A stretch of DNA of 64,000 bases, taken from IMG/VR virus record IMGVR_UViG_3300036770_008353; one strand, given 5' to 3'. Numbering within the stretch: position 1 is the stretch's first letter; each line of letters starts with the position of its first letter. The notes beneath the pieces are model-generated. The model was not told the DNA's origin and searched no databases. It worked only from the letters and a program-made list of their open reading frames with translations. This document shows, piece by piece, positions 1-54,403 of this stretch. The DNA is from an uncultured virus (IMG/VR IMGVR_UViG_3300036770_008353). Taxonomy: Duplodnaviria; Heunggongvirae; Uroviricota; Caudoviricetes. Both the position numbers and the translations under genes were made by a program.

Positions 1-30
1 CAGATTCGCCCAATCGATAGGCTTTGTCAT
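1..30 (-). CDS. 5' end of a gene running off the window (MTKPIDWANL...)
   Basis: ATG at 30, open to position 1, preceded by a -10-like TAGGAT 6 nt upstream. Confidence 0.5.
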   Translation of the reverse strand, partial: MTKPIDWANL

Positions 31-46
31 GTTCTTATCCTAACAT

Positions 47-412
47 TTAATATCCATTCTTTACACGCTGAACGTTGATTGCGCCTTTCTTCATGAAAGC
101 CTCATGAAGTTCTTCGGCCGAAATTCCGCTATAAATTACAATGCCGAAGAAGTAGTGTAGGGCGTCGACGAGCTCTTCCTTGTAGGATTCACGATCGAAA
201 TCTTTGATGTCTGTGACGCGGTGGTTCTTACTGTTCTTTAGCAGGTGATTTGCCTCAAAGAGCTCATGCATGCATTCGTGGGCGAGTCCCTTGAGGATCT
301 GCTGGTTCTTTTTCAGAGAAAGATCCAGTGGAAAATCTGGATACTGTCTCTCGTCACGAAGCAGAATGTTGAAGTCCCGCTGCTGATTGTACATCTCTTC
401 AAGCTTATCCAT
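47..412 (-). CDS. MazG-like / dimeric dUTPase-type all-alpha NTP pyrophosphatase
   Basis: ExxE...EExxD acidic motifs (HELFEA...KEELVDALHYF), 121 aa helical protein. Confidence 0.75.
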   Translation of the reverse strand: MDKLEEMYNQQRDFNILLRDERQYPDFPLDLSLKKNQQILKGLAHECMHELFEANHLLKNSKNHRVTDIKDFDRESYKEELVDALHYFFGIVIYSGISAEELHEAFMKKGAINVQRVKNGY

Positions 413-441
413 GTTGCTATTGTACTCCTAATCTTTAATTT

Positions 442-1446
442 TTACATCACCTGGGCTGCGATTAAACATCCACGAGCAACGGCATGTAGGGGATCTGCTG
501 CGTGGCGTACCTCTTTGACAGGAAGTGGGAAGCCATTGTCCTTCAACTTTGAAGCAAACATGTCGACGAATCCCTTGGCCTTGGATGTACCACCTGCAAC
601 CACGACTGGAAGATCACCCTTGAATTTTGGAAGTGACTTGTGGCCGTCCATCGCCGCTGCAAGTTGCTTCGTAGTGTAGTCGATAAGACGTTCATAATAG
701 GCTGCCACAGCGGCGAGGACCTGGTTATCGTTGGGTTGACCGACGGTGAACTCTCCTGACTCTTTTTCGGCCTGGACAATTGAATCTGTCTCACCTGTCG
801 CGACTGCGGACATACGATCGACCCAATCACCGGACTTTGTGGTGGAGAACTTGACCACAGGTTCACCGTTGAGCATGACGCAGACGTTGACCATACCTGC
901 GCCCCATGAGAGGCAGACACCTGTGTAGTCATCCTTGTCGAGTTCAGAGTAGCAAAGCGCCTCGGCCTCGTTGATGGCACGAGCATCGTAACCGACCTCG
1001 GCGAGGAGCTTGACGATGACGTCCTCATGGTAACCAACGTCGAAATCGTCGTCTTCTTGATCGATTGGTTGAGCAGGGACGCAGAAGACTAGCTTTTCAC
1101 CGGGCTCGGAGGGTGAGGCTGCGACCTCCTTGAGGATGTATGTCAAAATGCGACGGGCATCCTTTTCCTTGGATGATACGACACCACGGTACATTGGACG
1201 CTTCGCCGAGTCGTTTCTCTCCACGGCCTTTTCGATTGCGTCGGAGCCGAGGAGGATGAATGAACCATCAGTGTCCTTGACAAATGTCTTGCCAGCCAAA
1301 CCCTTTTCGATCATCTTGGCGGCGATCGGTGTTGTTGGCTTGAGGACGTAGAATGCGTCCCGGAAGTCCTTGTAGACCACCTTGCCCTTTGAACCCTCAG
1401 ATGCAAGAACGATGAATGATGTACCGACGTCTAAACCTTTAGCCAT
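442..1446 (-). CDS. Actin-fold ATPase (MreB/FtsA superfamily), volactin-like
   Basis: Phosphate-1 GLDVGT, connect-1 INEAEA, phosphate-2 SWGAGMVN, adenosine VVVAGGTS, connect-2 DPLHAVARG. Confidence 0.9.
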   Translation of the reverse strand: MAKGLDVGTSFIVLASEGSKGKVVYKDFRDAFYVLKPTTPIAAKMIEKGLAGKTFVKDTDGSFILLGSDAIEKAVERNDSAKRPMYRGVVSSKEKDARRILTYILKEVAASPSEPGEKLVFCVPAQPIDQEDDDFDVGYHEDVIVKLLAEVGYDARAINEAEALCYSELDKDDYTGVCLSWGAGMVNVCVMLNGEPVVKFSTTKSGDWVDRMSAVATGETDSIVQAEKESGEFTVGQPNDNQVLAAVAAYYERLIDYTTKQLAAAMDGHKSLPKFKGDLPVVVAGGTSKAKGFVDMFASKLKDNGFPLPVKEVRHAADPLHAVARGCLIAAQVM

Positions 1447-2269
1447 TGTTTTCTCCTAATTTACTTTCTATAAATTTTACGTCAAGCCCTGTAAACCTGT
1501 TGCGCATTGTTTGGATTGCGTCTGGGCTTGAATCACCTGTAATGAATTTTCTATTTGCTTCCATAGCCGCGGCCGCTGTTGAACCCGACCCTCCAAAAGG
1601 ATCAAGAACAATGTCTCCTTCATTTGACGATGCAACAATTGCACGCTTCATTAATTTAATTGGTTTCTGGTTGGGGTATCCTATTCTCTCTTTGGACGCT
1701 GTTCCTACGATGCTCATGCTCCACACGTCTGTTGGAACCTGACCTTCAGCTATTCTTTTCTCTGCCTCTTCCCTCGATCTACCAACATACTGTAGCTCTG
1801 GTGCGGCATATGGAATCCTGTCTATATCTTTCCAATTGAAAGTGTGCTTGCCCATCTCCTTGGTGTAGACAAGGATGGTGTCATGCTTCTGAGGCCAACG
1901 ATCCTTTCCTCGTCCACCAAAGTTGTAGGACCAAACAACCTCGTTGAGGAAGTTTTCCATTCCAAAGATTCCATCACACATCACCTTAGCATAGTGTACC
2001 CACCTCCAGTCCATGTGGAGGTACATGGTACCAGTAGGTTTCAGAACCCTGTGCATTTCAATCAGGTGAGGCTCAAGAAAATCGAGGTAATTCTCGTACT
2101 TATCGCTATACTCAATTTTAGAGACGGTTTTCCCGGCCTTCTTCCGGTCCATCGTCTGTGTGTTTCCTGTGCCGAACGGAGGATCGGTGTAGATAAGATC
2201 GATTGATTCATTAGGAATCGAACAAAGCAAGTCAAGGGCTGTGCCCCTGTGGACAACGTTTAGATCCAT
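1439..2269 (-). CDS. N6A/N4C DNA methyltransferase (beta-class motif order)
   Basis: Catalytic TDPPF precedes YPNQKP and SAM-binding LDPFGGSGST. Confidence 0.9.
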   Translation of the reverse strand: MDLNVVHRGTALDLLCSIPNESIDLIYTDPPFGTGNTQTMDRKKAGKTVSKIEYSDKYENYLDFLEPHLIEMHRVLKPTGTMYLHMDWRWVHYAKVMCDGIFGMENFLNEVVWSYNFGGRGKDRWPQKHDTILVYTKEMGKHTFNWKDIDRIPYAAPELQYVGRSREEAEKRIAEGQVPTDVWSMSIVGTASKERIGYPNQKPIKLMKRAIVASSNEGDIVLDPFGGSGSTAAAAMEANRKFITGDSSPDAIQTMRNRFTGLDVKFIESKLGENNG

Positions 2270-2282
2270 TGAATTGCTATTA

Positions 2283-2585
2283 TTACTTACGTTGCTTCAG
2301 TTGTGCAAGCCTAGAAACAGATGAACCTATGTCATCATCGACAGCGGAGGTCTTGCCTAGTTCGTTTCCTGTCTTGACGAATTTGTCGTCTGAAACTTTT
2401 GTGACGTACCTTGCTTCATCGATCTTCAAAATCTTCATTTTCGTCATCGTTTCATTTCGACTACCAAAACGCACCTTAGGCTCTTCTTGCGAATTCGAAG
2501 AACTATTTTTTGTAATACGACTAAGCACAAAACCAAGGAAAAAACCACATTGAAAAGCAGCGAAAATAATCAGCTCATGCGTCAT
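2283..2585 (-). CDS. Small membrane-anchored protein, possible partner of the actin-like ATPase
   Basis: N-terminal hydrophobic helix (LIIFAAFQCGFFLGFVLS), soluble tail ending in amphipathic SSVSRLAQLKQRK. Confidence 0.6.
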   Translation of the reverse strand: MTHELIIFAAFQCGFFLGFVLSRITKNSSSNSQEEPKVRFGSRNETMTKMKILKIDEARYVTKVSDDKFVKTGNELGKTSAVDDDIGSSVSRLAQLKQRK

Positions 2586-3528
2586 TGGTCGCTCTCATGT
2601 ACTCGATCATTCGATCCAATCCAATATCTAGGTCAATTCTTGGCTCCCAATCCAGTATTTTTTTGGCAAGCGTTATGTCAGGTTGTCGTTGTTTTGGATC
2701 GTCTTTTGGAAGAGGAAGAAATTCTATGCTTCCTCCCAATCTTAATTTGATTTTTTCAGCCAATTCAATGATCGTAAATTCGCTAGGGTTACCAACATTT
2801 ATAGGTGTGTTCGGATTGCTTGAAAGATTGCCTAACGCAAGAATGCCTCTAATCATGTCAGTGACATAACAAAAAGAACGTGACTGGAAACCATCTCCGT
2901 AGATTGTCATCGGCTTTCCCGCCAATGTTTGGCCAATCATATTTGTTATGACTCTGCCGTCGTGAGGGTCCATCCTAGGGCCGTACGTATTGAATATTCT
3001 AACTAGCCTCGCGTCGATGCCTCGTTTATGTGTGTGATCAAAGCATAAGGCTTCAGCGGCACGTTTACCTTCATCATAACATGATCTGGGCCCATATGAG
3101 TTGACACAGCCCCTATAGGCTTCTGGTTGAGGATGCACCATTGGGTCGCCGTAGACCTCCGACGTCGACGCCTGAACAAAGACGGTTTTGGCTGACGCCA
3201 AAGACAGCGCGTTGTTTGTTCCTACGACACATGTCATCATCGTTTCAATTGGAACATTTTGATAGATAGGCGGTGAGGCAGGACAAGCAAAATTATAGAT
3301 CAGGTCAAAAGACAGATGTGCATGCGTTTGAATAAATGCAGAAGATGCTATGTCCTGCCTGCTGAACGTATAATTCTTGTTAGAAACAGCGCTTCTGTGA
3401 TGCCTTGAGACAGGGCTAGAAGAACAAAAATTGTCAACTCCATATACTTTATCGCCTATCTGTAAGTGATGCTCTACAAGATAGCTGCCTATGAAACCTG
3501 CAGCACCTGTCACTAATATAGATTTCAT
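2575..3528 (-). CDS. UDP-glucuronate decarboxylase-like extended SDR (UDP-xylose synthase family)
   Basis: TGAAGFIG, ACPASP, STSEVYGDP, YDEGKR, RIFNTYGP, DDPKQRQPDI motifs. Confidence 0.9.
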   Translation of the reverse strand: MKSILVTGAAGFIGSYLVEHHLQIGDKVYGVDNFCSSSPVSRHHRSAVSNKNYTFSRQDIASSAFIQTHAHLSFDLIYNFACPASPPIYQNVPIETMMTCVVGTNNALSLASAKTVFVQASTSEVYGDPMVHPQPEAYRGCVNSYGPRSCYDEGKRAAEALCFDHTHKRGIDARLVRIFNTYGPRMDPHDGRVITNMIGQTLAGKPMTIYGDGFQSRSFCYVTDMIRGILALGNLSSNPNTPINVGNPSEFTIIELAEKIKLRLGGSIEFLPLPKDDPKQRQPDITLAKKILDWEPRIDLDIGLDRMIEYMRATNDA

Positions 3529-3575
3529 AAGAAATATTATAACGTTTTTTTAGATTCTGTCTATATTTAAGGGAC

Positions 3576-4193
3576 ATGAAAGATTACAGCAGCCTTTTAA
3601 ATGAAAAATTTGGTACACCTATCGGCGAAGTGCCAGGCATAACCTCCGTTGGAGCCGTAGGCGTTCGTGATGAAGAAACATGTCCTGACTGTGAAATGCC
3701 TGTCGTTGAAGGCATGTGTGGATGTGATGAATCTAATGAAGGTTATGAAGATGAAGAAGGCGTGCTTAGCGTCGGAGAAGATGACTCCGATTGTTGCGAT
3801 GATTGCGGAATGATGGTTGTAGACGGCTCATGTGGATGTGGTGAAGAATGTCCGCACTGCAACCAAATGCCTGCAGCAGGATCGTGTGGATGCAGCGATA
3901 CCTCGGATTCAAATTGGTATACTATGGCTTCTGAAGAAGCATCAGAAGAGTACTTAAAAGAGGCTGATAAGGTCTGTGATGAGTGCGGAATGAATGAATC
4001 CATGTGTGAGTGCGGAATGAATGAATCAAAGAAAAGAAAAGGTCCTTCAAAAAAAGCGGCACAAAAAATACTTAAAGGAACAAAAACTTTTGCTCAAAAG
4101 ATGCAAAAAGTTTCAGGTTGGGCAAAAGAACCTGCCGCAGCGGCAGCATGGATGATGCATAAAGCTATAGGTAAGTGGCCATCTGAAAAGTAA
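3576..4193 (+). CDS. Cys-rich acidic protein with four CxxC..CxC units and a basic C-terminus
   Basis: 17 Cys in repeats such as CPDCEMPVVEGMCGC, CDDCGMMVVDGSCGC, CPHCNQMPAAGSCGC; ATATTTA motif just upstream. Confidence 0.7.
   Translation: MKDYSSLLNEKFGTPIGEVPGITSVGAVGVRDEETCPDCEMPVVEGMCGCDESNEGYEDEEGVLSVGEDDSDCCDDCGMMVVDGSCGCGEECPHCNQMPAAGSCGCSDTSDSNWYTMASEEASEEYLKEADKVCDECGMNESMCECGMNESKKRKGPSKKAAQKILKGTKTFAQKMQKVSGWAKEPAAAAAWMMHKAIGKWPSEK
3981..4027 (+). repeat. 20-bp perfect direct repeat (GAGTGCGGAATGAATGAATC x2, 27-nt period)
   Basis: Copies at 3981-4000 and 4008-4027; encodes ECGMNES twice. Confidence 0.95.
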
Positions 4194-5276
4194 TCAAGAA
4201 TTCTTACCGTGTGATCCATTTTCTCTAACACCGCTTGAAGAAACGCCAATAAATTTTGCCTTGGCCCGAAGTTCTCTAATGGTCCTGGCGCCTGAATAAG
4301 ATAGCCCTGATCGGACTCCATCCATCAATTCGATCAGGGTTTGTCTCATTGAGCCCTTATATGGTACAAGCGTTGAATCGCCTTCAACAACGGAAACCTT
4401 TCCACGCCATTCAAGCTGCGCTTCGCGTGAAGCCATTCCTCGAAATTTTTTGAAAAGCGGAATGTCATTCTTCCAGTTAGGACTGTGCGGAACACCGCGC
4501 TTATCAACAATCTCACCTGGGGATTCATCATGGCCTGCAAGGATTGAGCCTAGCATCACCATGTCGGCACCGGCTGCGAGGGCTTTCACTGCGTCACCAG
4601 AGTTTCGAATGCCTCCATCGGCGATTATGTAGACGTCACGATCCGACTTTGCGCAATCGATTACTGATTGCAACGTTGGAATCCCGTGACCTGTCCTGAC
4701 ACGAGTCGTGCACATTGAACCACCGCCTACCCCAACACGAATCGAATCAGAACCCCAGTCGGCCAATGCGTTGAATGCCTCGAGGGTCGCGACGTTGCCT
4801 GTCATGATATGAACAGATTTGCCAAATCTTGATCGAAGAGCGGAAAGCGCATTCTTTACATTTACGTGATGGCCGTGTGCAACATCAACACAAAAAGCGC
4901 GACACCCAACAGAATATAAAGCAGCGGCGCGTTCAAGATAATCGCCTGTTGCACCAATCGCCACCATAACGTTGTTTGATGATGTCTTGCCCATCGATGT
5001 CGTTTCAAGATACGCCTGGCGTGTTTCTTCGATCGAGCAATATCGATGCAAGACACCGAATCCTCCCACATCCGCAAGGACGGCAGCTGCAACTGGACCT
5101 ATCACCGTGTCCATTGGTGATCCGACAATTGGACACGTAAGATGAGGCTTTCCTTCAACAAGGTTCATAAATGACGTATCAAATCCAGGAACTGACAGAT
5201 CAACGCTTGAGCGTGATTCAATTTCTGAATACTGCGGGACCAAAAGAACATCGTCAAAACAAACTGCCCTGTTCAT
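4194..5276 (-). CDS. IMP dehydrogenase / GMP reductase family protein without CBS domains
   Basis: [36 protein letters not shown] (catalytic Cys), [21 protein letters not shown]. Confidence 0.92.
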
Positions 5277-13927: not shown

Positions 13928-14710
13928 ATGATTTTATTAAAAAAGGGATCCACAGGACACGATGTGGAAAGATGGCAGGCGTTTCTTAGAGGCGTCAATG
14001 ACGGCAGCGACGTTGTCATCAACGGTATCTTCGATGAAGTGACGCTGACCGAAACAGTGGAATTTCAACGGGCTCAAAAACTCACTGCTGACGGTATCGT
14101 CGGGCCCAAAACATTTGAAATGGCCAAAAGGTTTGAGTATCCTGAAGCGTACGACGACGACAATGTCGCCAATCCACATTGGCCTCAAAATCCTGGCGTA
14201 AAAAATCTTTCTTTTATCGAACGAAGAAACATGTTCGGAAATTTTTCATACATTCCTACGCCTATCAAGGGTAATCCTGAAGCGATCAGGATCACAGACA
14301 GCTGGGCTACAAACAACATCACGTCGATTATCGTACCTCAACTGTCAGGAGTCACAGGTGCAAGCAAAAGTGGGATGATACAGATGCATTCAAAAATTGC
14401 CAATCAAACTGTTGCTCTTTTCCATGCATGGGAAGATGCGGGCTTAACTGACAGAATCATCACGTGGGGAGGTTCTTGGGTGCCTCGTTTCATTAGAGGC
14501 TCCAGAACATCGCTGTCAAATCATGCCTGGGGAACAGCATTCGATATCAATGCGCAGTGGAATGGGTTAGGAATGAAGCCAGCGATTGTTGGTCAAAAGG
14601 GTTGCGTTAGAGAGCTGGTCGACATTGCCGTTCAATTTGGATTTTATTGGGGAGGGTGGTTTCCTAATCGACCTGATGGCATGCACTTTGAGGCATTTAA
14701 AATACTATAA
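13928..14710 (+). CDS. Endolysin: peptidoglycan-binding domain plus M15 Zn peptidase
   Basis: LKKGSTG..V..WQ..L, DGIVGPKT (PG-binding); SNHAWGTAFDIN and DGMHFE (M15). Confidence 0.88.
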   Translation: MILLKKGSTGHDVERWQAFLRGVNDGSDVVINGIFDEVTLTETVEFQRAQKLTADGIVGPKTFEMAKRFEYPEAYDDDNVANPHWPQNPGVKNLSFIERRNMFGNFSYIPTPIKGNPEAIRITDSWATNNITSIIVPQLSGVTGASKSGMIQMHSKIANQTVALFHAWEDAGLTDRIITWGGSWVPRFIRGSRTSLSNHAWGTAFDINAQWNGLGMKPAIVGQKGCVRELVDIAVQFGFYWGGWFPNRPDGMHFEAFKIL

Positions 14711-48139: not shown

Positions 48140-51100
48140 TCACTGTACCTGCTGCAGGTTGTTGGCCACGACGAAGTCGAGTGAGACGAACTCGATGCTC
48201 TTCGTCGGCTGGACGAAGATCTTGCCGCGGACGGTGTTGTTCTCCACGTCGACCTGGGTCGTCGTCGAGGAGTCGATGATGACCCTGAACCTCTCGAGGC
48301 CGGCGAGTGCCTGGATCCTCTGGAGGCGTGGTGTGACAGCCGCAGAGAACCGGGCGAGCGTTGCCTCACGGTTCGGCTCGAAGATGATCGTCTGGGCGAT
48401 CTCACGTACCTGGCGCCTGATCTCGATGAGGAGGCGGCGGACGTTGACGCGGTCGAGGGCCGAGGCTGCGATCTGAAGCGTCTTCTGACCCCAGACGACC
48501 AGCGTTGAAACGTTGGTGTTGTTGCTGGGGATCTGGAAGGCAACGAGCGGGTTGATCCTGTCGTTATACAGGGCGTCTAGGTCCTCTTCCTTCAGCTGCG
48601 TCCTTGCCTCGATGGCAACGTCACGTGGCACCGCACCGCGTGTGAAGCCTGCGGGGGCAAACCAAGGATGACCAACGGCGTCGTTAAGTGCCATGGCTCC
48701 AAGGACAAGAACCGAAGGCGGAACGAAGACGTTGTTACCGTCAGGTGCCTTGTACAGGATGTCAGGGAAGTATGCCGCTGCGAATGATGAATCGACGTTC
48801 CTATCGCGGAAGCTTGAAAGCGTGTTGTAGACCGATGTGATGTCTGTCTGCTTTCTGACCTCGTTGATGGACTCTGTTCCATCTTGTGTAAACTGCTCGA
48901 TGTCCATGACATACAGGGCATCGAAACGATCCTCTGTGGCCACGGTGGCGTAGTCTGTCACGATGGGATGCCTAATTCCAGGTATCGCCAACAGTTGAAT
49001 GTCCATGTTGACGGTGTTCTTCATGATGTCGACGGCCTTGACGTATGTTTTGACGTTAGGACCGTCATTCAAGAAGCGACCATTGCCGAACACCATGTCG
49101 TCCGAGACGGCGCTGTTGCTTAGCGTGGCCTCGTCTTCATTGAAGATATTGACGCCATTGAATCCGCCTTGAAGCAAGAACGTGAACTTTGCATATGTCT
49201 TGTTGGCTGTCTCGGCCAAGTCCTTGATCTGGAATGGTCTTGTCTTGGCTGCAGAATCGACGCCTATGTTTCCGTTTCTTATGTACGTTGCGTCGACCCA
49301 TTTCAGCACGTCGGCCAATCCTGATGATCCTGTTACGACCTTGACGTTCTCAAGGCTGAAGACGTTCCTGTTGAATCTGTCGGAGTCGAGGATTCCGTTG
49401 GCAGCCGTGTCAGCAGCGCCGGCGTTGTCACCAACGATGAACGGCATGTCGACGGTTGCAAAATCAGGGAAGTACTTCGCGAAGCTCTTGATCGACGTGT
49501 TCTTGAGAATTGAAGCGTTCGGTTTTGTAACGTTTTCAACGTGCTCAAACTGAACACCCCAGTAATACTTGTTGTTTTGGGTCTCTTGAGGGTCACCAAC
49601 AACGCCGTCCGACACCTTCGCACGCATGGGAACTGGTGGTGTCACGGCTCGTCGGAAGGCATTAAGGCCGGCTGTGTCAACGCCACCCGCCGATGGTCCT
49701 GTCGTGTTGGGCAACGATGGAAAGATCGTCGATCCTGACGTGACGAGGTGTGCAATTCCACGGAAGCCCATTGGAAGAGCCGATGGATCGACGAATCCAT
49801 TCTCAACGTCGGGATGAACCTCAACGCGAACGTAATTCGACTTGTTGGGATAGTTTCCTTCAACGACGAGCTTTTGCTCTTCGTCGTCTCTGTCGAAGTC
49901 GTAGTAAGCGTGAACGTCTCCGATGACCTTTCCAATGTACCTGTTGGATACAGGGTTTAGGTCTACTGTGAAAGTTTCGTTTGAAGCGATGAGCTGTTGC
50001 TGCTGGTCTCTGTCTTCCCAGTTCCTGATCTTGATAGTAAAAGAACCATACTTGCTGTTTAGATCAGCAGAAGGCGTAATGTTTTCTATCGATATCTTGT
50101 AGAGAGATGAAATGTCTTGTCCTGCATCAAGAGCGTGCAATCTAAACAGGTTCTGAGGTTTACCACCAAATTTCTGTGATATTACCCACGGAGATTTAGC
50201 GTACGAGAACCTATCCTCAAAGTTTTCAAAGTTAGGAACTGTGCTAGTTCCAACATTTCTTGCCTGTGAGGATGTCAACAAGAAAGCTGAGTTTTCAACG
50301 CCTGTCTTGTCCAAGTAGAATGTTCCACCCGCGTCGGCTCCGTGTGAAGCCGACAAGATGCCAACACCAGTTATCGTCGCAAGGCTGGGATGGATATCCC
50401 AGTGTGCATACAGCAGGTGACCCTTTTCCTGAAGCTTGTATGGGTCAGTGTTCAAAACGTTGCCAAAGTAATTGTTGGAGATAGGATCAAAAGAAGCAGT
50501 GACGACGTTCGGACTGTTTGCATCGAGACCCTTATGGCCGTTCAGCAGAAGAACGAACTCTTGCTTCATGGCGGTACCGTCAGTCAGCGTCACTGTTCCA
50601 ATCGTTGAACCACGAAGGGGCTGGCTGATCGATCCTATCTGACCCGTAGTTGGCTTTGAAGAATCCGATGAGCCTGTGAGTGATGATGAAAGCCTCAGAA
50701 CGACGCCTGAAGCTGCCATTATAACACCTCTAACTATTGGAGCAGCGATGTTGTCGCCTACAGTCTGAAGACCTGCTTCGCTAAAAAACTTAGAGCCAGC
50801 GGACTCTGACATGAATCCGCCCAGGAAGTATGTCCTTCCAGAGTCGCCAAAAAGATTTGCGTAAGGATTGCTGTCCAGTTTGCCAGAAGATCCACTAGGC
50901 TGATTTTCACCTACAACGAAGCCTGCTGTGGTGACGGAACCAGGAACAAGACCACTGGCGTCTTGTCTTTCTTTTCCGTCGCCGACACCAAGAACTCGAA
51001 GAAAGACCACAGACTTTGCATTTCTTAGCCACTCAAGAACGGCCATCGGACCAAAATGCTTGCTGTCGACTGTGCCAAACTTGGCTTCGAAGTCCTGCCT

Positions 51101-51250
51101 TGTTCCTACGTTGATAGGAACGAATGCCGGACCTTTCTTTGCGGTTCCGACAACACCGGCAGGAATACCTGTCGGCGGTGTGGCTACCGGTCCTGAGATG
51201 TCAATCTCGTTAGCTGTTACTCCTGCTGCTCCTAATTTTAGCTGTGCCAT
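48140..51250 (-). CDS. Tail sheath protein (copy 2)
   Basis: KGPAFVP, WFAPAGFTRG, INPL, WGQKTLQ..SALDRVNVRRLL, IFEPN, IEFVSLDF. Confidence 0.92.
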   Translation of the reverse strand: MAQLKLGAAGVTANEIDISGPVATPPTGIPAGVVGTAKKGPAFVPINVGTRQDFEAKFGTVDSKHFGPMAVLEWLRNAKSVVFLRVLGVGDGKERQDASGLVPGSVTTAGFVVGENQPSGSSGKLDSNPYANLFGDSGRTYFLGGFMSESAGSKFFSEAGLQTVGDNIAAPIVRGVIMAASGVVLRLSSSLTGSSDSSKPTTGQIGSISQPLRGSTIGTVTLTDGTAMKQEFVLLLNGHKGLDANSPNVVTASFDPISNNYFGNVLNTDPYKLQEKGHLLYAHWDIHPSLATITGVGILSASHGADAGGTFYLDKTGVENSAFLLTSSQARNVGTSTVPNFENFEDRFSYAKSPWVISQKFGGKPQNLFRLHALDAGQDISSLYKISIENITPSADLNSKYGSFTIKIRNWEDRDQQQQLIASNETFTVDLNPVSNRYIGKVIGDVHAYYDFDRDDEEQKLVVEGNYPNKSNYVRVEVHPDVENGFVDPSALPMGFRGIAHLVTSGSTIFPSLPNTTGPSAGGVDTAGLNAFRRAVTPPVPMRAKVSDGVVGDPQETQNNKYYWGVQFEHVENVTKPNASILKNTSIKSFAKYFPDFATVDMPFIVGDNAGAADTAANGILDSDRFNRNVFSLENVKVVTGSSGLADVLKWVDATYIRNGNIGVDSAAKTRPFQIKDLAETANKTYAKFTFLLQGGFNGVNIFNEDEATLSNSAVSDDMVFGNGRFLNDGPNVKTYVKAVDIMKNTVNMDIQLLAIPGIRHPIVTDYATVATEDRFDALYVMDIEQFTQDGTESINEVRKQTDITSVYNTLSSFRDRNVDSSFAAAYFPDILYKAPDGNNVFVPPSVLVLGAMALNDAVGHPWFAPAGFTRGAVPRDVAIEARTQLKEEDLDALYNDRINPLVAFQIPSNNTNVSTLVVWGQKTLQIAASALDRVNVRRLLIEIRRQVREIAQTIIFEPNREATLARFSAAVTPRLQRIQALAGLERFRVIIDSSTTTQVDVENNTVRGKIFVQPTKSIEFVSLDFVVANNLQQVQ

Positions 51251-51298: not shown

Positions 51299-54200
51299 TC
51301 AAACGAACTGCACGCCGGCATTTGTAACAATGAAGTCGATCGCTATGAACTCGATCGCCCTCGTGGGTACCACGACAATTCGACCATTGAGCTTGTTGAG
51401 GTCAACATCGTCCTGCGTGTTATTAGTCTCATTCATAACGACCTGGAATGCTTCAACTCCTGCTTGTGTTTGGATAAGCGAAAGCTGGAACACCGCCTGT
51501 GAAACGAACTGATTTCTAACCGCTGGTGTATTTTGCTCAAACACAATTCTCTGTGCTATTCCAATGATAATTCGCTTGACCTCGAGCAAAAGACGTCTAA
51601 CGTTGACCCTGTCAAGAGCAGACTTGTTTATTTGCAGCGTCTTTTGTCCGTAAATCACATATCCCAGACGTGGGAACGTTGCGATTGGATTGATCCTTGA
51701 ATCGTACAATCGATCTCTGTCACCCACATTCAGTCTAACACCGACGTTTGTGACGAAATCAAGGGCCGCCCTGTTGAAACCAGCAGGAGCAAACCAAGGA
51801 TAAGCAACCTTGTCATTGAAGCTCAAGGCACCGAGAGCGGCGACTGAGGCAGGAACCTTGATACGACGAACATTCGTAGCGTCATCTATGAAGACGTCTG
51901 GGAAGTATGTCGCAGCGTAATTGTTGTCTATCGCTCGGGCGTCGAATGCCGCCGCCGTGGTGCGAATATTCGGCTTGGTCGTCGAATCATCGTAAAGCCT
52001 GTTGCCTGAATCATCATACGATGGAATATCCATCAGATGAAGCGCCAAACCATAATCACGAACCTTCTTGGCGGTTTGATCCATGATGTATTCCTCGCGT
52101 ACGCCAGGCAACGTTAGGATGTTGATTCCTACCTTGAAAGGATCTGTCATCATGTCGACTGCTGACATAAACGATGCGACGCCATTGTTGTCTTTTCCTG
52201 TTCCTGAAACTACGCTTGGGAATCCTACAGGAACATAAGACGCTGCGGCGCCGCCGCCTGTCGCAGAATCGAAAGATAGCGATTTGTCATTAATTCTTCT
52301 TGCGTTTCTGTCGAGCATGTTGACGCCATCAAAACCGCCATACATCATGTTCGTGAACTTCAAGAAGGGTGAGAATCTATTGAAAGCAGCTGGGTTCAAT
52401 CCTGACTCTTTTGCGTTCGACTTCGCAAGAAGCGTAGCAAAAGTCACCCTGTTGATTCCATTATCTTCGACCGTGTAAGTTGTTGTATCTGGTCGTGCAT
52501 TTCTAATGTATGCCGTCTCCTTCATGTGGGCTGCGGCTGAACCCGTCACATCTGTCACGGTCTCATTTCTAAATGCAACTTTTGCCAATGTGAACTTATT
52601 GTTATTGAACATGTCAGCGCCACTGCCTGTGTGCAGCACGTCAAGTTTCATGATTCCCATAAAGTTTGTCAAAGAATCAAGCAACTTGTTCTTTTCGTTC
52701 AAGACGTTTGCATTAAGAACATCGTCTTCGGAACTAATGCCGTTTCTTTCAAACTTAATACCCCAGTACAAAGAAGGCAAAGTGACCTCTTTCGGACCAG
52801 CCTCACCGGCATAGTTTACACCCGATGATTTAACTTCTCCACGTGTGACCTTGTACCTAAACGGAAGAGGAGGAAGAACAGATCCTGAGAGCAGGTGCGT
52901 TCCTGCGTTTGGAAGAACTCCTGCCAAGCGGCCGCTGCCTGTAGGCATCATGTCAAGCGCAGACAAGTTGTTGTTCGTTTTTAGGAATGATGGTCCTCTA
53001 AAACCGAACGGCAGACATGTTGGAGGAACAAGCTTTTTACTGACAATGTCGGACATCACGACTCTGACATACTTTGACTTATTGTCGTAAGTTCCATTCG
53101 TGATAAGTCGACGCTCTCTAGGGTCGAACGCGTCGAAGTGGAAGAACAAATCCTTGTCACCAACCAGCTTCGCAATATAGTTTGGTGAATCTGGGTCAAG
53201 CGTGCAATTTGTGAACTGCTCGATGATGACAGGAGTAATGTCTGAGTCGCTCCAATCACGTATCTGAAGATTAAACGTTCCATATTTGTTCGAATCGTCA
53301 GGCGATGACTTGATGTTAGTGATAGAAATCTTGTAAAGCTTGTTGGCGTACTCTCCGTCGTCAAGTGACTCTACCCTGAAAAGATCGTACTCAGTGGCAC
53401 CATAAGGTTGTGATATAAACCATGAAGTAGATGGCGTTGTGTAACGAGTGTTATATGAACCGAATGCTTCACGGAACTCAAGCGAAGGGTCACCTGACAC
53501 AGCGCTAACTGCTGATGAACCGGAAAGCACAGCGACATAGTTTCCATCCTCGACTGTGGCAACCTGGTCGTCGACAGCAAAGTCTGCCGCGAGGTAATGC
53601 TGCGCTTCAAAGAATTTGTCGGGATCGGTATTCAAAACCTTTGCAAAATAATCATCAGCTGAAGGATCAAAAGAAGCAGTGAAGATTCTAATACCAGGTA
53701 TTCCTTCGTCATTGGCGAAAGTCGATCCCAAAGAAGAAGAGATGTAGATCTTGATCTTAGGCTTTCCATCAACGTCCGCTGCAGTCGCTTCATCTGTGAC
53801 AGCTGAAAAGACTGAAGGTGAACCCGTGACAGGAGTCGCATGGCTTCCTGTCAGGATCATCATTCTCGACGTATTGGTGGTCATCACCAAGCCTCTGACA
53901 AGATTGACAACATCCGTTCCAGGAGTTATTCCAGGAAATGTGTTGTTGTCACTGAACATCGGCATGCCAAAGTTTTCTTTGGTTCTCACGGTGTGTTCAG
54001 CCGCCAAGAACTGCACGGCACCAACATGTCGGCCCGGGTCGTCGTCACCAGCTACGCCTAACAGCTTGAATCCCGCGTTCTTGACGGTTCCTTTTGAAAC
54101 TGTGTCTGAAACGTCATTGATCGTTGAGTTAGCGCCTGCACCCAAAACCCTCATGTAAGTGAGAGCCGTCCTGTTCTTCAGGAACTCATTGACAGCGTAA

Positions 54201-54403
54201 GGACCAAAATACTTCGTGTCCAGACCGCCGAATGTCGTGGTAAACTCACCAAAATTTGCAACCGTGACCGGAACGAAGGCGGGACCCTTCTTTGAAAGAC
54301 CAATCACGCCCGCAGGCGTTCCAACGGGTCCTCCCGTGGTAGGTGCGGACAGATCGATTTCTCTTTCGTAAAAATTTGGAGATCTAAAAACTTGCTCGGC
54401 CAT
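51299..54403 (-). CDS. Tail sheath protein (copy 1)
   Basis: SPNFYEREIDLS, KGPAFVP, WFAPAGFNRA, INPIATF, GQKTLQ..SALDRVNVRRLL, IEFIAIDF. Confidence 0.92.
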   Translation of the reverse strand: MAEQVFRSPNFYEREIDLSAPTTGGPVGTPAGVIGLSKKGPAFVPVTVANFGEFTTTFGGLDTKYFGPYAVNEFLKNRTALTYMRVLGAGANSTINDVSDTVSKGTVKNAGFKLLGVAGDDDPGRHVGAVQFLAAEHTVRTKENFGMPMFSDNNTFPGITPGTDVVNLVRGLVMTTNTSRMMILTGSHATPVTGSPSVFSAVTDEATAADVDGKPKIKIYISSSLGSTFANDEGIPGIRIFTASFDPSADDYFAKVLNTDPDKFFEAQHYLAADFAVDDQVATVEDGNYVAVLSGSSAVSAVSGDPSLEFREAFGSYNTRYTTPSTSWFISQPYGATEYDLFRVESLDDGEYANKLYKISITNIKSSPDDSNKYGTFNLQIRDWSDSDITPVIIEQFTNCTLDPDSPNYIAKLVGDKDLFFHFDAFDPRERRLITNGTYDNKSKYVRVVMSDIVSKKLVPPTCLPFGFRGPSFLKTNNNLSALDMMPTGSGRLAGVLPNAGTHLLSGSVLPPLPFRYKVTRGEVKSSGVNYAGEAGPKEVTLPSLYWGIKFERNGISSEDDVLNANVLNEKNKLLDSLTNFMGIMKLDVLHTGSGADMFNNNKFTLAKVAFRNETVTDVTGSAAAHMKETAYIRNARPDTTTYTVEDNGINRVTFATLLAKSNAKESGLNPAAFNRFSPFLKFTNMMYGGFDGVNMLDRNARRINDKSLSFDSATGGGAAASYVPVGFPSVVSGTGKDNNGVASFMSAVDMMTDPFKVGINILTLPGVREEYIMDQTAKKVRDYGLALHLMDIPSYDDSGNRLYDDSTTKPNIRTTAAAFDARAIDNNYAATYFPDVFIDDATNVRRIKVPASVAALGALSFNDKVAYPWFAPAGFNRAALDFVTNVGVRLNVGDRDRLYDSRINPIATFPRLGYVIYGQKTLQINKSALDRVNVRRLLLEVKRIIIGIAQRIVFEQNTPAVRNQFVSQAVFQLSLIQTQAGVEAFQVVMNETNNTQDDVDLNKLNGRIVVVPTRAIEFIAIDFIVTNAGVQFV

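Follow-up and report, generated by a model that had tools for sequence, protein, structure and literature searches.

The window, that is, the whole stretch of 64,000 nucleotides analysed here (IMG/VR record IMGVR_UViG_3300036770_008353), has the gene content of a myovirus-type phage, with two tail-sheath genes, a tape measure, a tail tube and a baseplate hub. RNR, UvsX, SSB and ThyX are annotated as well, and a tRNA search of the window returned none. Searched against a phage database, a virion protein and the recombinase find their best matches at 31–37% identity, scattered over cyanophages, a Pelagibacter-type phage and phages of Microcystis, Bacillus and Mycobacterium; cultured relatives come no closer than this in structural or recombinase proteins. 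The genes considered here form a tight co-directional run amid genes of nucleotide metabolism and replication, with the following features:

442–1446, minus strand: Volactin-family actin-like ATPase, 334 residues (PF25216 over the full length; AF2 model)
1439–2269, minus strand: N6/N4 DNA methyltransferase between anchor and actin, outside the module (PF01555, E 9.5e-50)
2283–2585, minus strand: candidate membrane anchor or adaptor, 100 residues, unnamed family (upstream linkage to the actin, hydropathy, AF2)
2286–2351, minus strand: C-terminal tail of the anchor, residues 79–100, predicted actin-binding strand and helix (conservation, complex prediction)
2370–2432, minus strand: conserved middle motif of the anchor, residues 52–72, of the type K-I-x-I-D-[DE]-x-[KR]-[FY]-V-T (alignment)
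2520–2576, minus strand: predicted single transmembrane helix of the anchor, residues 4–22 (Kyte-Doolittle; pLDDT 91–96)
3536–3563, minus strand: tentative sigma-70-like promoter match (TAGACA-16-TATAAT, 11 of 12 matches)

The initial annotation had described the product of 442–1446 as an actin that carries the motifs of the fold and resembles volactin along its whole length, and both statements hold. The open reading frame starts with ATG, has AGGAG 7 nt upstream and contains every motif string that was quoted. The Volactin profile (PF25216) aligns end to end, with residues 1–331 on positions 1–321 of 321 (E 1.2e-64; 219.3 bits, cut-off 35). Salactin (PF25229) stays below its cut-off (23.6 bits, cut-off 27.1), as does MreB_Mbl (PF06723), which matches a partial stretch only (20.9 bits, cut-off 27). 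Neither ParM nor AlpC is among the PDB or Pfam matches of the protein, and PHROGs holds no family for the actin or for the 100-residue anchor. The phosphate 1, phosphate 2 and adenosine motifs are intact, and the invariant columns of a 73-sequence family alignment (D6, G8 and T9; G182 and G184; G285 and G286) lie within the nucleotide motifs of the actin fold. The product of 442–1446 is thus a genuine full-length member of the Volactin family.

The AF2 model of the 334-residue actin (pLDDT 95.7, pTM 0.92) shows the four-subdomain actin fold. The best Foldseek matches in the PDB are BeeR (8r2n, E 1.3e-15), MamK (5ljv, E 2.6e-15) and MreB (1jce, E 1.1e-14), with a probability of 1.00 and TM scores of 0.64–0.73, and a profile search of solved structures returned MamK (E 6.8e-17) and MreB (E 1.4e-8). 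By analogy with its relatives, the phage volactin most likely forms dynamic filaments by polymerising with ATP.

We found 310 relatives of the actin in the viral collection and, in the protein collection, 1792 matching proteins with E no higher than 1e-3. Relatives are 74–93% identical in protein while their synonymous sites are saturated; for those at 76–93%, dN is 0.05–0.18 and dN/dS, where defined, 0.02–0.06. At the same loci IMPDH is 67–73% identical and the other neighbours are 30–51% identical; the actin is far more strongly conserved than the genes around it. Inteins are present at the phosphate-2 region of several relatives. Outside viruses, Volactin-family genes occur in 112 of the 301 Planctomycetota genomes searched. 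Among 14 control genomes the Volactin model matched in four, once above the cut-off, and at E 1e-20 Haloferax volcanii was the sole match among them, above the cut-off. In a FastTree tree of phage, planctomycete and further sequences, which contains no haloarchaeal VolA, the phage actins with anchors form a clade of their own, separate from that of the planctomycetes (local support 100, from FastTree only). Judged from sequence, the volactin family occurs in large uncultured phages of an abundant clade. Two source assignments were rejected along the way: the most acidic representative (P0161), considered as haloarchaeal, lies in a Planctomycetia MAG, and the Chlamydiae MAG label of one close homologue was taken as a binning label and not as evidence of the host.

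The 100-residue protein encoded at 2283–2585 had been noted for one N-terminal transmembrane helix and a C-terminal helix, and this description is borne out by hydropathy and by the AF2 model. The Kyte-Doolittle maximum is 1.90, in a 19-residue window from residue 4, and a second hydrophobic segment is absent from this protein and from all of its 43 homologues. Among the homologues, 32 reach the usual threshold of 1.6, and the other 11 reach 1.41–1.56, so that some anchors may be peripheral rather than membrane-spanning. The model consists of a helix at residues 2–31, a middle part of low confidence and a helix at 86–99. Lysines and arginines after the hydrophobic segment number 17 in the window’s anchor and 14–21 across the 12 anchors inspected. 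I55, D84, L93 and K97 are invariant in the 43 sequences, and D56, L76, G77 and L96 nearly so. Pfam has no family for the anchor: across the 43 members we found no consistent family, no DNA-binding family and no helix-turn-helix, and the ESM Atlas gave no match at or above 0.9. An HMM built from the tail alone retrieved 106 open reading frames across all phage loci and the window, every one of them an anchor.

The anchor and the actin are tightly linked. The anchor profile, made from 43 homologues that all come from the first of the two locus sets described here, matches directly upstream and on the same strand in 80 of the 81 loci with an actin at least 74% identical; the lone miss has no upstream DNA. 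It also matches upstream in 28 of 34 further loci, where the actin is 65–77% identical and which contributed no sequence to the profile. Over the two sets, 108 of 115 related phage loci have the anchor beside the actin or a short way upstream, and in all three searchable exceptions among the 34 it is found 4.1–6.6 kb upstream on the same strand. The proposal of a membrane-protein gene linked to the actin therefore stands, since the linkage is conserved, while the remaining neighbours of the pair turn over between loci. No open reading frame of the anchor family was found near the distant phage actins (32–41% identical; loci L082, L083 and L119), which makes the pairing a feature of a single clade rather than of viral volactins in general.

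In the window, as had been noted, only the methyltransferase separates the two genes. Otherwise it occurs at this position only in the loci L001 and L002, both 100% identical to the window, and elsewhere the anchor abuts the actin; by this distribution the methyltransferase is a lineage-specific insertion. The promoter match at 3536–3563 lies in the sole intergenic gap of the co-directional run epimerase–anchor–methyltransferase–actin–MazG. We treat it as a lead only, because the region holds just as many promoter-like sites as expected from shuffles (6 against 6.0); the scan for promoters and terminators as a whole gave counts no higher than in shuffles.

Prediction of the complex, which had been proposed as a check, favours an interaction between anchor and actin. 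The score is 0.70 (0.67, 0.71 and 0.70 in separate runs), against 0.00 for the best of three controls. This mark is attained by 116 of 157 solved complexes and by 2 of 215 mismatched pairs, a calibration that is only roughly valid here because our own alignments were used. The runs share at least 84% of their contacts, with a partner pLDDT of at least 53. The predicted contacts involve anchor residues 68–99 and actin residues 166–174, 193–195 and 318–333, and D84, L93, K97, L76, G77 and L96 of the anchor all fall inside this interface. The prediction thus supports binding of the anchor tail to the actin, with the proviso that the score is the model’s own confidence and that a pair resembling solved actin-peptide complexes may pass because the model remembers them. 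Of the middle motif, only residues 68–72 are among the confident contacts, and the conserved I55 and D56 are left unexplained by the predicted interface.

Planctomycete volactins also have an upstream partner, and it ends in a tail that resembles the tail of the phage anchor in hhalign (P 0.0013, probability 18%). An HMM of the phage tail was used to search the six-frame peptides from 37 further loci (33 in planctomycete genomes, and L082, L083, L084 and L119); the best match was the C-terminus of a partner, at L133, with a non-significant E of 0.2. Conversely, an HMM of the planctomycete tail gave no match up to E 10 in 1399 peptides of the window, and among 17,749 peptides of the phage loci it matched the anchor of L097 only (E 0.084, non-significant). 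With the HMM tests non-significant and hhalign alone giving P 0.0013, a tail shared by phage anchors and planctomycete partners is suggestive, not established.

We consider it fairly probable that the locus encodes a two-part cytoskeletal module, in which a volactin-family actin is combined with a membrane anchor that binds its filament ends; the phage would then probably build its own membrane-tethered cytoskeleton inside the host. From hydropathy and charge, the single N-terminal helix of the anchor would insert in the host cytoplasmic membrane, with the lysine-rich remainder in the cytoplasm. A flexible linker would display the conserved C-terminal strand and helix. In the predicted complex the strand joins a hairpin of actin subdomain IA (residues 22–26), and the helix occupies the cleft that the 160–174 helix, the 193–195 hairpin and the C-terminal helix 322–333 form between subdomains IA and IIA. 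Since this cleft is the site of the ParR tail and of barbed-end binders, the anchor is more likely to sit on filament ends than on filament sides. The filaments may therefore be tied to the membrane by their tips, resembling the volactin filaments of Haloferax. Given its location amid nucleotide-metabolism and replication genes, the module is expected to act in genome replication or particle assembly, where it may organise or position phage material relative to the membrane; the filament could position DNA or capsids, or reshape the host.

We speculate further, and tentatively, that the tail is a portable and ancient volactin-binding element found in unrelated carriers (the single-pass anchors of a large phage clade, the long soluble partners of planctomycetes, perhaps others), which works like a ParR tail or a formin on the growing filament end, so that these phages build, at the membrane of the host, a tip-anchored, insertionally growing actin cytoskeleton that positions sites of replication or assembly. 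We regard this wider proposal as possible but on balance doubtful. If true, it would describe the equivalent of the PhuZ spindle made from actin, and a whole layer of cell biology based on volactin and its adaptors would become open to study, in bacteria as well as in their viruses; a tail possibly common to planctomycete partners would hint at a general adaptor code for the volactin family.

The phage actin might instead be directed at the host, co-polymerising with, capping or mislocalising MreB or a host volactin, or altering cell shape, size or division, with the anchor placing it at the membrane. Haloferax volactin acts in cell-shape transitions (PMC10869688), volactin genes are common in Planctomycetota, and the similar tail of the planctomycete partners makes cross-talk conceivable. 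The anchored phage actins are nevertheless a clade separate from the planctomycete one, and a host volactin cannot be presumed. Since the phage encodes the filament protein as well as the partner, the system looks self-contained, and we consider a host-directed role unlikely. It is also rather improbable that the two genes are merely co-expressed neighbours, with the small protein serving as a holin-like, superinfection-exclusion or other membrane protein that has no direct link to the actin. The small protein has no family annotation, and its architecture, a short N-terminal hydrophobic helix and a highly charged C-terminus, is superficially holin-like. However, the pair persists while its other neighbours change, even across insertions of 0.8–6.6 kb, the complex prediction separates it from the controls, and the predicted interface contains the best-conserved residues of the anchor. 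Placement of the anchor in a lysis cassette was rejected, as the only endolysin-like gene of the window (13928–14710) lies 11 kb away on the opposite strand.

A DNA-segregating or DNA-positioning system of the ParMRC or AlpAC type, with an adaptor that links the filament to phage DNA instead of to the membrane, would share the small upstream adaptor and the tail predicted in the IA/IIA cleft, which is the layout of ParR and ParM (PMC5016525), and AlpAC provides a prophage precedent (PMC4446434). We hold it to be very unlikely here: the N-terminal helix of the adaptor is hydrophobic, Pfam detects no DNA-binding domain in the 43 members, no iteron or centromere-like array occurs in 1–4300, where there is hardly any intergenic DNA, and the phage looks like a large lytic myovirus and not like a plasmid prophage. 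Equally far from probable is a non-polymerising actin-fold ATPase, such as a chaperone-like, kinase-like or PilM/EutJ-like enzyme. EutJ and PilM do appear among the lower Foldseek matches, at ranks 22–35, but the best matches in sequence and structure are all filament formers, and the type member of the family polymerises in vivo (PMC10869688). As a Volactin member whose nearest solved relatives form filaments, the protein does not group with non-polymerising enzymes, and conservation far above that of the neighbouring enzymes would suit a protein with many self-contact surfaces.

The favoured reading, an end-anchored volactin module, can be compared with several known systems. By profile and by fold, MamK and MreB are the nearest solved relatives of the phage actin. 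MreB, with RodZ, and MamK function at bacterial membranes, where their partners are single-pass or membrane-associated proteins. In RodZ an N-terminal helix-turn-helix domain in the cytoplasm makes the contact with MreB, whereas the phage anchor is predicted to use a C-terminal tail, and no helix-turn-helix was found in the anchor. PhuZ has a tubulin fold and the phage volactin an actin fold; PhuZ is not known to have a membrane anchor.

In ParM–ParR–parC and in AlpC–AlpA of prophage CGP3 there is likewise an ATPase of the actin type whose small adaptor is encoded immediately upstream. In the IA/IIA cleft of ParM the tail of ParR occupies a hydrophobic pocket, much like barbed-end binders on actin (PMC5016525), and the tail of the phage anchor is predicted at the same place. 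The comparison with AlpC drawn in the initial annotation is apt, as AlpC is a prophage actin with a co-transcribed adaptor, AlpA, and the pair is used early in phage replication (PMC4446434). ParM and AlpC belong to another actin family, however, and their adaptors carry a DNA-binding domain, where the phage protein has a predicted membrane helix and no centromere-like repeat accompanies it. In the parts of the literature surveyed, phage cytoskeletons have so far comprised PhuZ, a tubulin polymer that positions phage structures in large, nucleus-forming jumbo phages, and the AlpC of one prophage (PMC4446434, PMC8314001). Our literature search found no publication on a phage volactin. If filaments and tethering are confirmed, the module would represent a new kind of cell biology among viruses of bacteria.

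The closest comparison is with VolA of H. volcanii (HVO_2015), whose Pfam family (PF25216) the phage actin matches over its full length, the comparison being made through the family profile. Volactin has been studied in one haloarchaeon only, in the literature surveyed. VolA is archaeal and the present copy viral, and the role of VolA in the rod-to-disk transition need not apply to the phage actin. A two-protein system of this size (334 residues plus a tail of ~30) would, if confirmed, allow study of volactin nucleation and anchoring, a question left open by the archaeal papers. In both cases a gene for a membrane protein, a predicted one in the phage, lies near the actin gene; the haloarchaeal one, HVO_2016, is CdpA-like with four transmembrane segments (PMC12126565), and the phage anchor has one hydrophobic helix in 100 residues. 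VolA filaments, the only volactin filaments shown so far in vivo, polymerise dynamically and touch the membrane by their tips (PMC10869688), which fits a phage anchor that binds filament ends.

The ORF at 442-1446 encodes an actin that belongs to the volactin family. It matches the Pfam family Volactin (PF25216) end to end, covering profile positions 1-321 of 321 with 219.3 bits (cut-off 35 bits; E 1.2e-64). The Salactin and MreB_Mbl models both score below their own Pfam cut-offs, and no family was found in PHROGs. The full-length match, with MreB_Mbl below its cut-off, bears out the assignment to volactin rather than MreB in the initial annotation, and all eight motif strings quoted there occur in the translation. 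As a control of the PF25216 model, 14 named genomes were searched: Haloferax volcanii was the sole match at E 1e-20, above the cut-off, and at the default limit four genomes matched, one of them above the cut-off.

The AlphaFold2 model of the actin, based on an alignment of 73 family members, has a pLDDT of 95.7 and a pTM of 0.92. Its top fold matches in the PDB are filament-forming actins throughout, namely the BeeR filament (8r2n), MamK (5ljv) and MreB (1jce/4czm), with E values of 1e-15 to 1e-14; a sequence-profile search of the PDB ranks MamK (6.8e-17), BeeR, MreB and then FtsA. Columns that are invariant across the family alignment coincide with the phosphate-1 (D6, G8, T9), phosphate-2 (G182, G184) and adenosine (G285, G286) motifs. 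Outside the window, four of ten long volactin relatives scanned (P0122, P0133, P0151 and P0160, about 700 aa) are interrupted by inteins near residue 180-205, in the phosphate-2 region, with a LAGLIDADG or HNH homing endonuclease inside. Another relative from outside the window (P0175, 1160 aa) carries a volactin domain fused to Wzz/GNVR chain-length-determinant domains and a ParA/MinD-like ATPase; it is a BY-kinase-type membrane protein, and a further case of a volactin tied to a membrane machine.

The window belongs to a tailed phage, with genes for tail tube, tape measure, baseplate hub, RNR, ThyX, thymidylate kinase, UvsX/RecA and SSB, together with one resembling an endolysin gene. CheckV rates the nearest record, a 48.6-kb viral contig, as 14% complete, and relatives are found on viral contigs as long as 461 kb. 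The features discussed here are:

47-412, minus strand: MazG-like pyrophosphatase, an auxiliary metabolic gene flanking the module
442-1446, minus strand: volactin-family actin, 334 codons, ATG start with an AGGAG box 7 nt before it
1439-2269, minus strand: methyltransferase
2283-2585, minus strand: candidate anchor, 100 aa
2575-3528, minus strand: NAD-dependent sugar-nucleotide epimerase/dehydratase, an auxiliary metabolic gene flanking the module
3576-4193, plus strand: cysteine-rich acidic protein, 205 aa, with C-x-C and C-G-M-N-E-S repeat units and DNA repeats D1 and D3
4194-5276, minus strand: IMPDH/GMP-reductase-family enzyme, an auxiliary metabolic gene flanking the module
48140-51250 and 51299-54403, minus strand: adjacent tail-sheath paralogues, 1036 and 1034 aa, matching the sheath family mainly in the C-terminal 200-340 residues

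Epimerase, anchor, methyltransferase, actin and pyrophosphatase form a co-directional run, in which the methyltransferase is indeed the sole gene between anchor and actin. The anchor overlaps the stop of the preceding epimerase by 11 nt, the methyltransferase follows the anchor after 13 nt and overlaps the start of the actin by 8 nt. The run's sole intergenic gap, ahead of the epimerase, contains a sigma-70-like match (11/12), which we treat as a lead only, because promoter-like matches in the region are no more numerous than in shuffled sequence. The -10 box of this site (3536-3563) ends 7 nt before the epimerase ATG and leaves no room for a Shine-Dalgarno sequence; a genuine promoter here would make the epimerase, which opens the run, a leaderless gene. 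The cysteine-rich protein, which has no Pfam or PHROG family, is encoded beside the IMPDH/GMP-reductase gene in related phages as well (30-67% identity).

The anchor has no family in Pfam, PHROG or Atlas. It contains a single hydrophobic segment (Kyte-Doolittle 1.90 at residue 4), and its AlphaFold2 model consists of a helix at 2-31 (pLDDT above 90), a low-confidence middle and a C-terminal helix at 86-99, in agreement with the N-terminal membrane helix and C-terminal helix annotated initially. We predict one membrane helix with the C-terminus inside. Homologues in other loci are ORFs of 94-158 aa located 0-100 nt upstream of the actin and similarly built: an N-terminal hydrophobic helix with an F-x-L-G-Y-x-x-G-R-x-D-like motif at its end is followed by a variable linker, then by a block of the K-I-x-I-D-D-x-K-F-V-T type and the tail D-D-I-x-S-A-x-x-K-L-A-Q-L-K-K. 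In two loci (L072:4848-5996 and L075:4848-5996) an ORF of about 280 aa precedes the anchor in the same frame, with no stop between them; it starts with a hydrophobic segment and, by eye, contains serine-protease-like motifs. Were this a real fusion, the membrane helix would carry a domain on its outer side, consistent with an N-out, C-in topology.

Actin and anchor are retained together. We compared a first tier of 80 viral loci (actin 74-100% identical to that of the window), taken from 310 relatives found, and a second tier of 34 loci (65-77% identical) reached through two more distant representatives, 31 through P0121 and three through P0124. Of ten window genes searched by tblastn against the loci, just two recur, those for the actin and for the small protein, and the methyltransferase lies between them solely in the two loci with 100% identity to the window. 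A profile of 43 anchor proteins, searched against six-frame translations, matched upstream of the actin in 80 of 81 first-tier loci (L001-L081), the single miss having the actin at a contig edge, and in 28 of 34 second-tier loci, none of which was used in building it. For the six second-tier misses, the anchor was located 4.1-6.6 kb upstream on the same strand in all three whole records that could be searched (E 1e-26 to 1e-28). The pair therefore stays together despite insertions, of which the window's methyltransferase is the smallest observed, and the linkage proposed at the outset holds across both tiers. The profile matched none of four distant loci (actin 32-41% identical; two GenBank huge phages, a viral contig and a planctomycete metagenome-assembled genome, MAG).

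The actin gene is under strong purifying selection. Compared with 17 relatives, its dN is 0.05-0.18 with saturated synonymous sites, and dN/dS is 0.02-0.06 in the three pairs with defined dS; the anchor has a dN of 0.52-0.88. In loci with an actin 89-93% identical, IMPDH is 67-73% and the remaining neighbours 30-51% identical. In a FastTree phylogeny of 166 volactin domains (82% clustering, midpoint root, built without a named outgroup or H. volcanii VolA), the 21 anchor-bearing phage rows group with one unnamed representative in a single clade (local support 100) with a long stem and short inner branches. A planctomycete clade (support 98-99) unites 22 of 24 planctomycete rows with both rows of the MAG locus L084, which are planctomycete. 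The two GenBank huge phages and the viral locus L119 fall elsewhere in the half of the tree shared with them.

The proposed interaction of the membrane protein with the actin is backed by complex prediction. With the actin (73 aligned sequences) and anchor residues 28-100 (43 aligned sequences) as input, the score was 0.70 (runs 0.67, 0.71 and 0.70), and the best of three controls scored 0.00. Of 157 solved complexes 116 attain this score, as do 2 of 215 mismatched pairs; these counts are only a rough guide here because our own alignments were used, and likeness to solved actin-peptide complexes could help the pair to pass. At least 84% of the contacts agree between runs, with a partner pLDDT of at least 53. 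Confident predicted contacts join anchor residues 68-99 to actin 17-28, 50-66, 99-108, 166-174, 193-195 and 318-333; the tightest pairs place anchor 79-84 beside actin strand 22-26, and the tail helix (86-93) against actin 166, 174, 194, 329 and 332. Judging by where secondary-structure elements lie in the model and by standard actin topology, we read the predicted tail site as the cleft between subdomains IA and IIA. Outside the membrane helix, all invariant or near-invariant anchor residues except I55 and D56 lie in the predicted interface.

A similar tail may occur in other volactin partners. Volactin scores above the cut-off in 112 of 301 Planctomycetota genomes, and the volactin homologue of the planctomycete MAG is directly preceded by an ORF whose terminal tail is much like that of the phage anchor. 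An iterated search seeded with the last 60 residues of one partner found a conserved block (E-S-N-L-x-x-V-x-V-K-x-x-K-A-x-G-V-x-x-x-L-A-K-L-K-x-L) in 22 of 30 planctomycete loci among those listed, always terminal in the ORF upstream of the actin. The block and the window's anchor (I86, V90, L93, L96, K97) have the hydrophobic spacing [IV]-x3-[LV]-x2-L-x2-L-[KRQ] in common. Two one-way HMM searches between phage and planctomycete tails were both non-significant, and hhalign aligned the two C-terminus to C-terminus in register (P 0.0013, probability 18%); a shared tail is therefore suggestive only, the statistics being weak. The planctomycete partners (L084:2004-3008 and the upstream ORFs of L127-L154) have 240-450 aa and no hydrophobic helix, the resemblance residing in the last 30 or so residues; L084 also encodes two volactin paralogues in tandem, of which the second begins with a zinc-ribbon-like region. 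A tail of similar pattern ends a 207-aa ORF without hydrophobic helix (L082:3334-3957) in an uncultured phage of 485 kb (GenBank LR745208), where it lies upstream of a 37%-identical volactin and among neighbours that look like virion genes. In L119, the anchor's place upstream of a 41%-identical volactin is taken by a 463-aa protein (L119:1117-2508) in which a zinc-ribbon-like unit occurs at least five times and the end resembles a nuclease.

Most probably, we infer, the phage volactin forms dynamic, ATP-driven filaments, which the anchor would hold at the membrane by their ends, and the module would act during replication or assembly. Binding to filament ends is suggested by the predicted site, by the precedent of ParR and ParM (PMC5016525), and by Haloferax volactin filaments, which are reported to meet the membrane only at their tips (PMC10869688). 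That paper, which describes volactin, does not mention phage or virus. For phage-encoded actin, only the AlpC paper and a plasmid-prophage paper were found within coverage that leaves subscription journals aside. Among the jumbo-phage matches listed for actin-like proteins, titles and abstracts concern PhuZ-type reviews and other topics, and in one paper the term belongs to a ParMRC citation; the huge-phage literature examined contains no whole-word actin, MreB, cytoskeleton or tubulin. The methyltransferase insertion, the split pairs and the planctomycete tail resemblance are additions of the present analysis. In Haloferax, according to PMC12126565, a CdpA-like protein with four transmembrane helices is encoded beside volA, and a pull-down of CdpA showed enrichment of volactin (log2FC 2.5, p 0.06); a membrane partner therefore appears to be a recurring theme, even though the CdpA-like family and the phage anchor showed no homology to each other.
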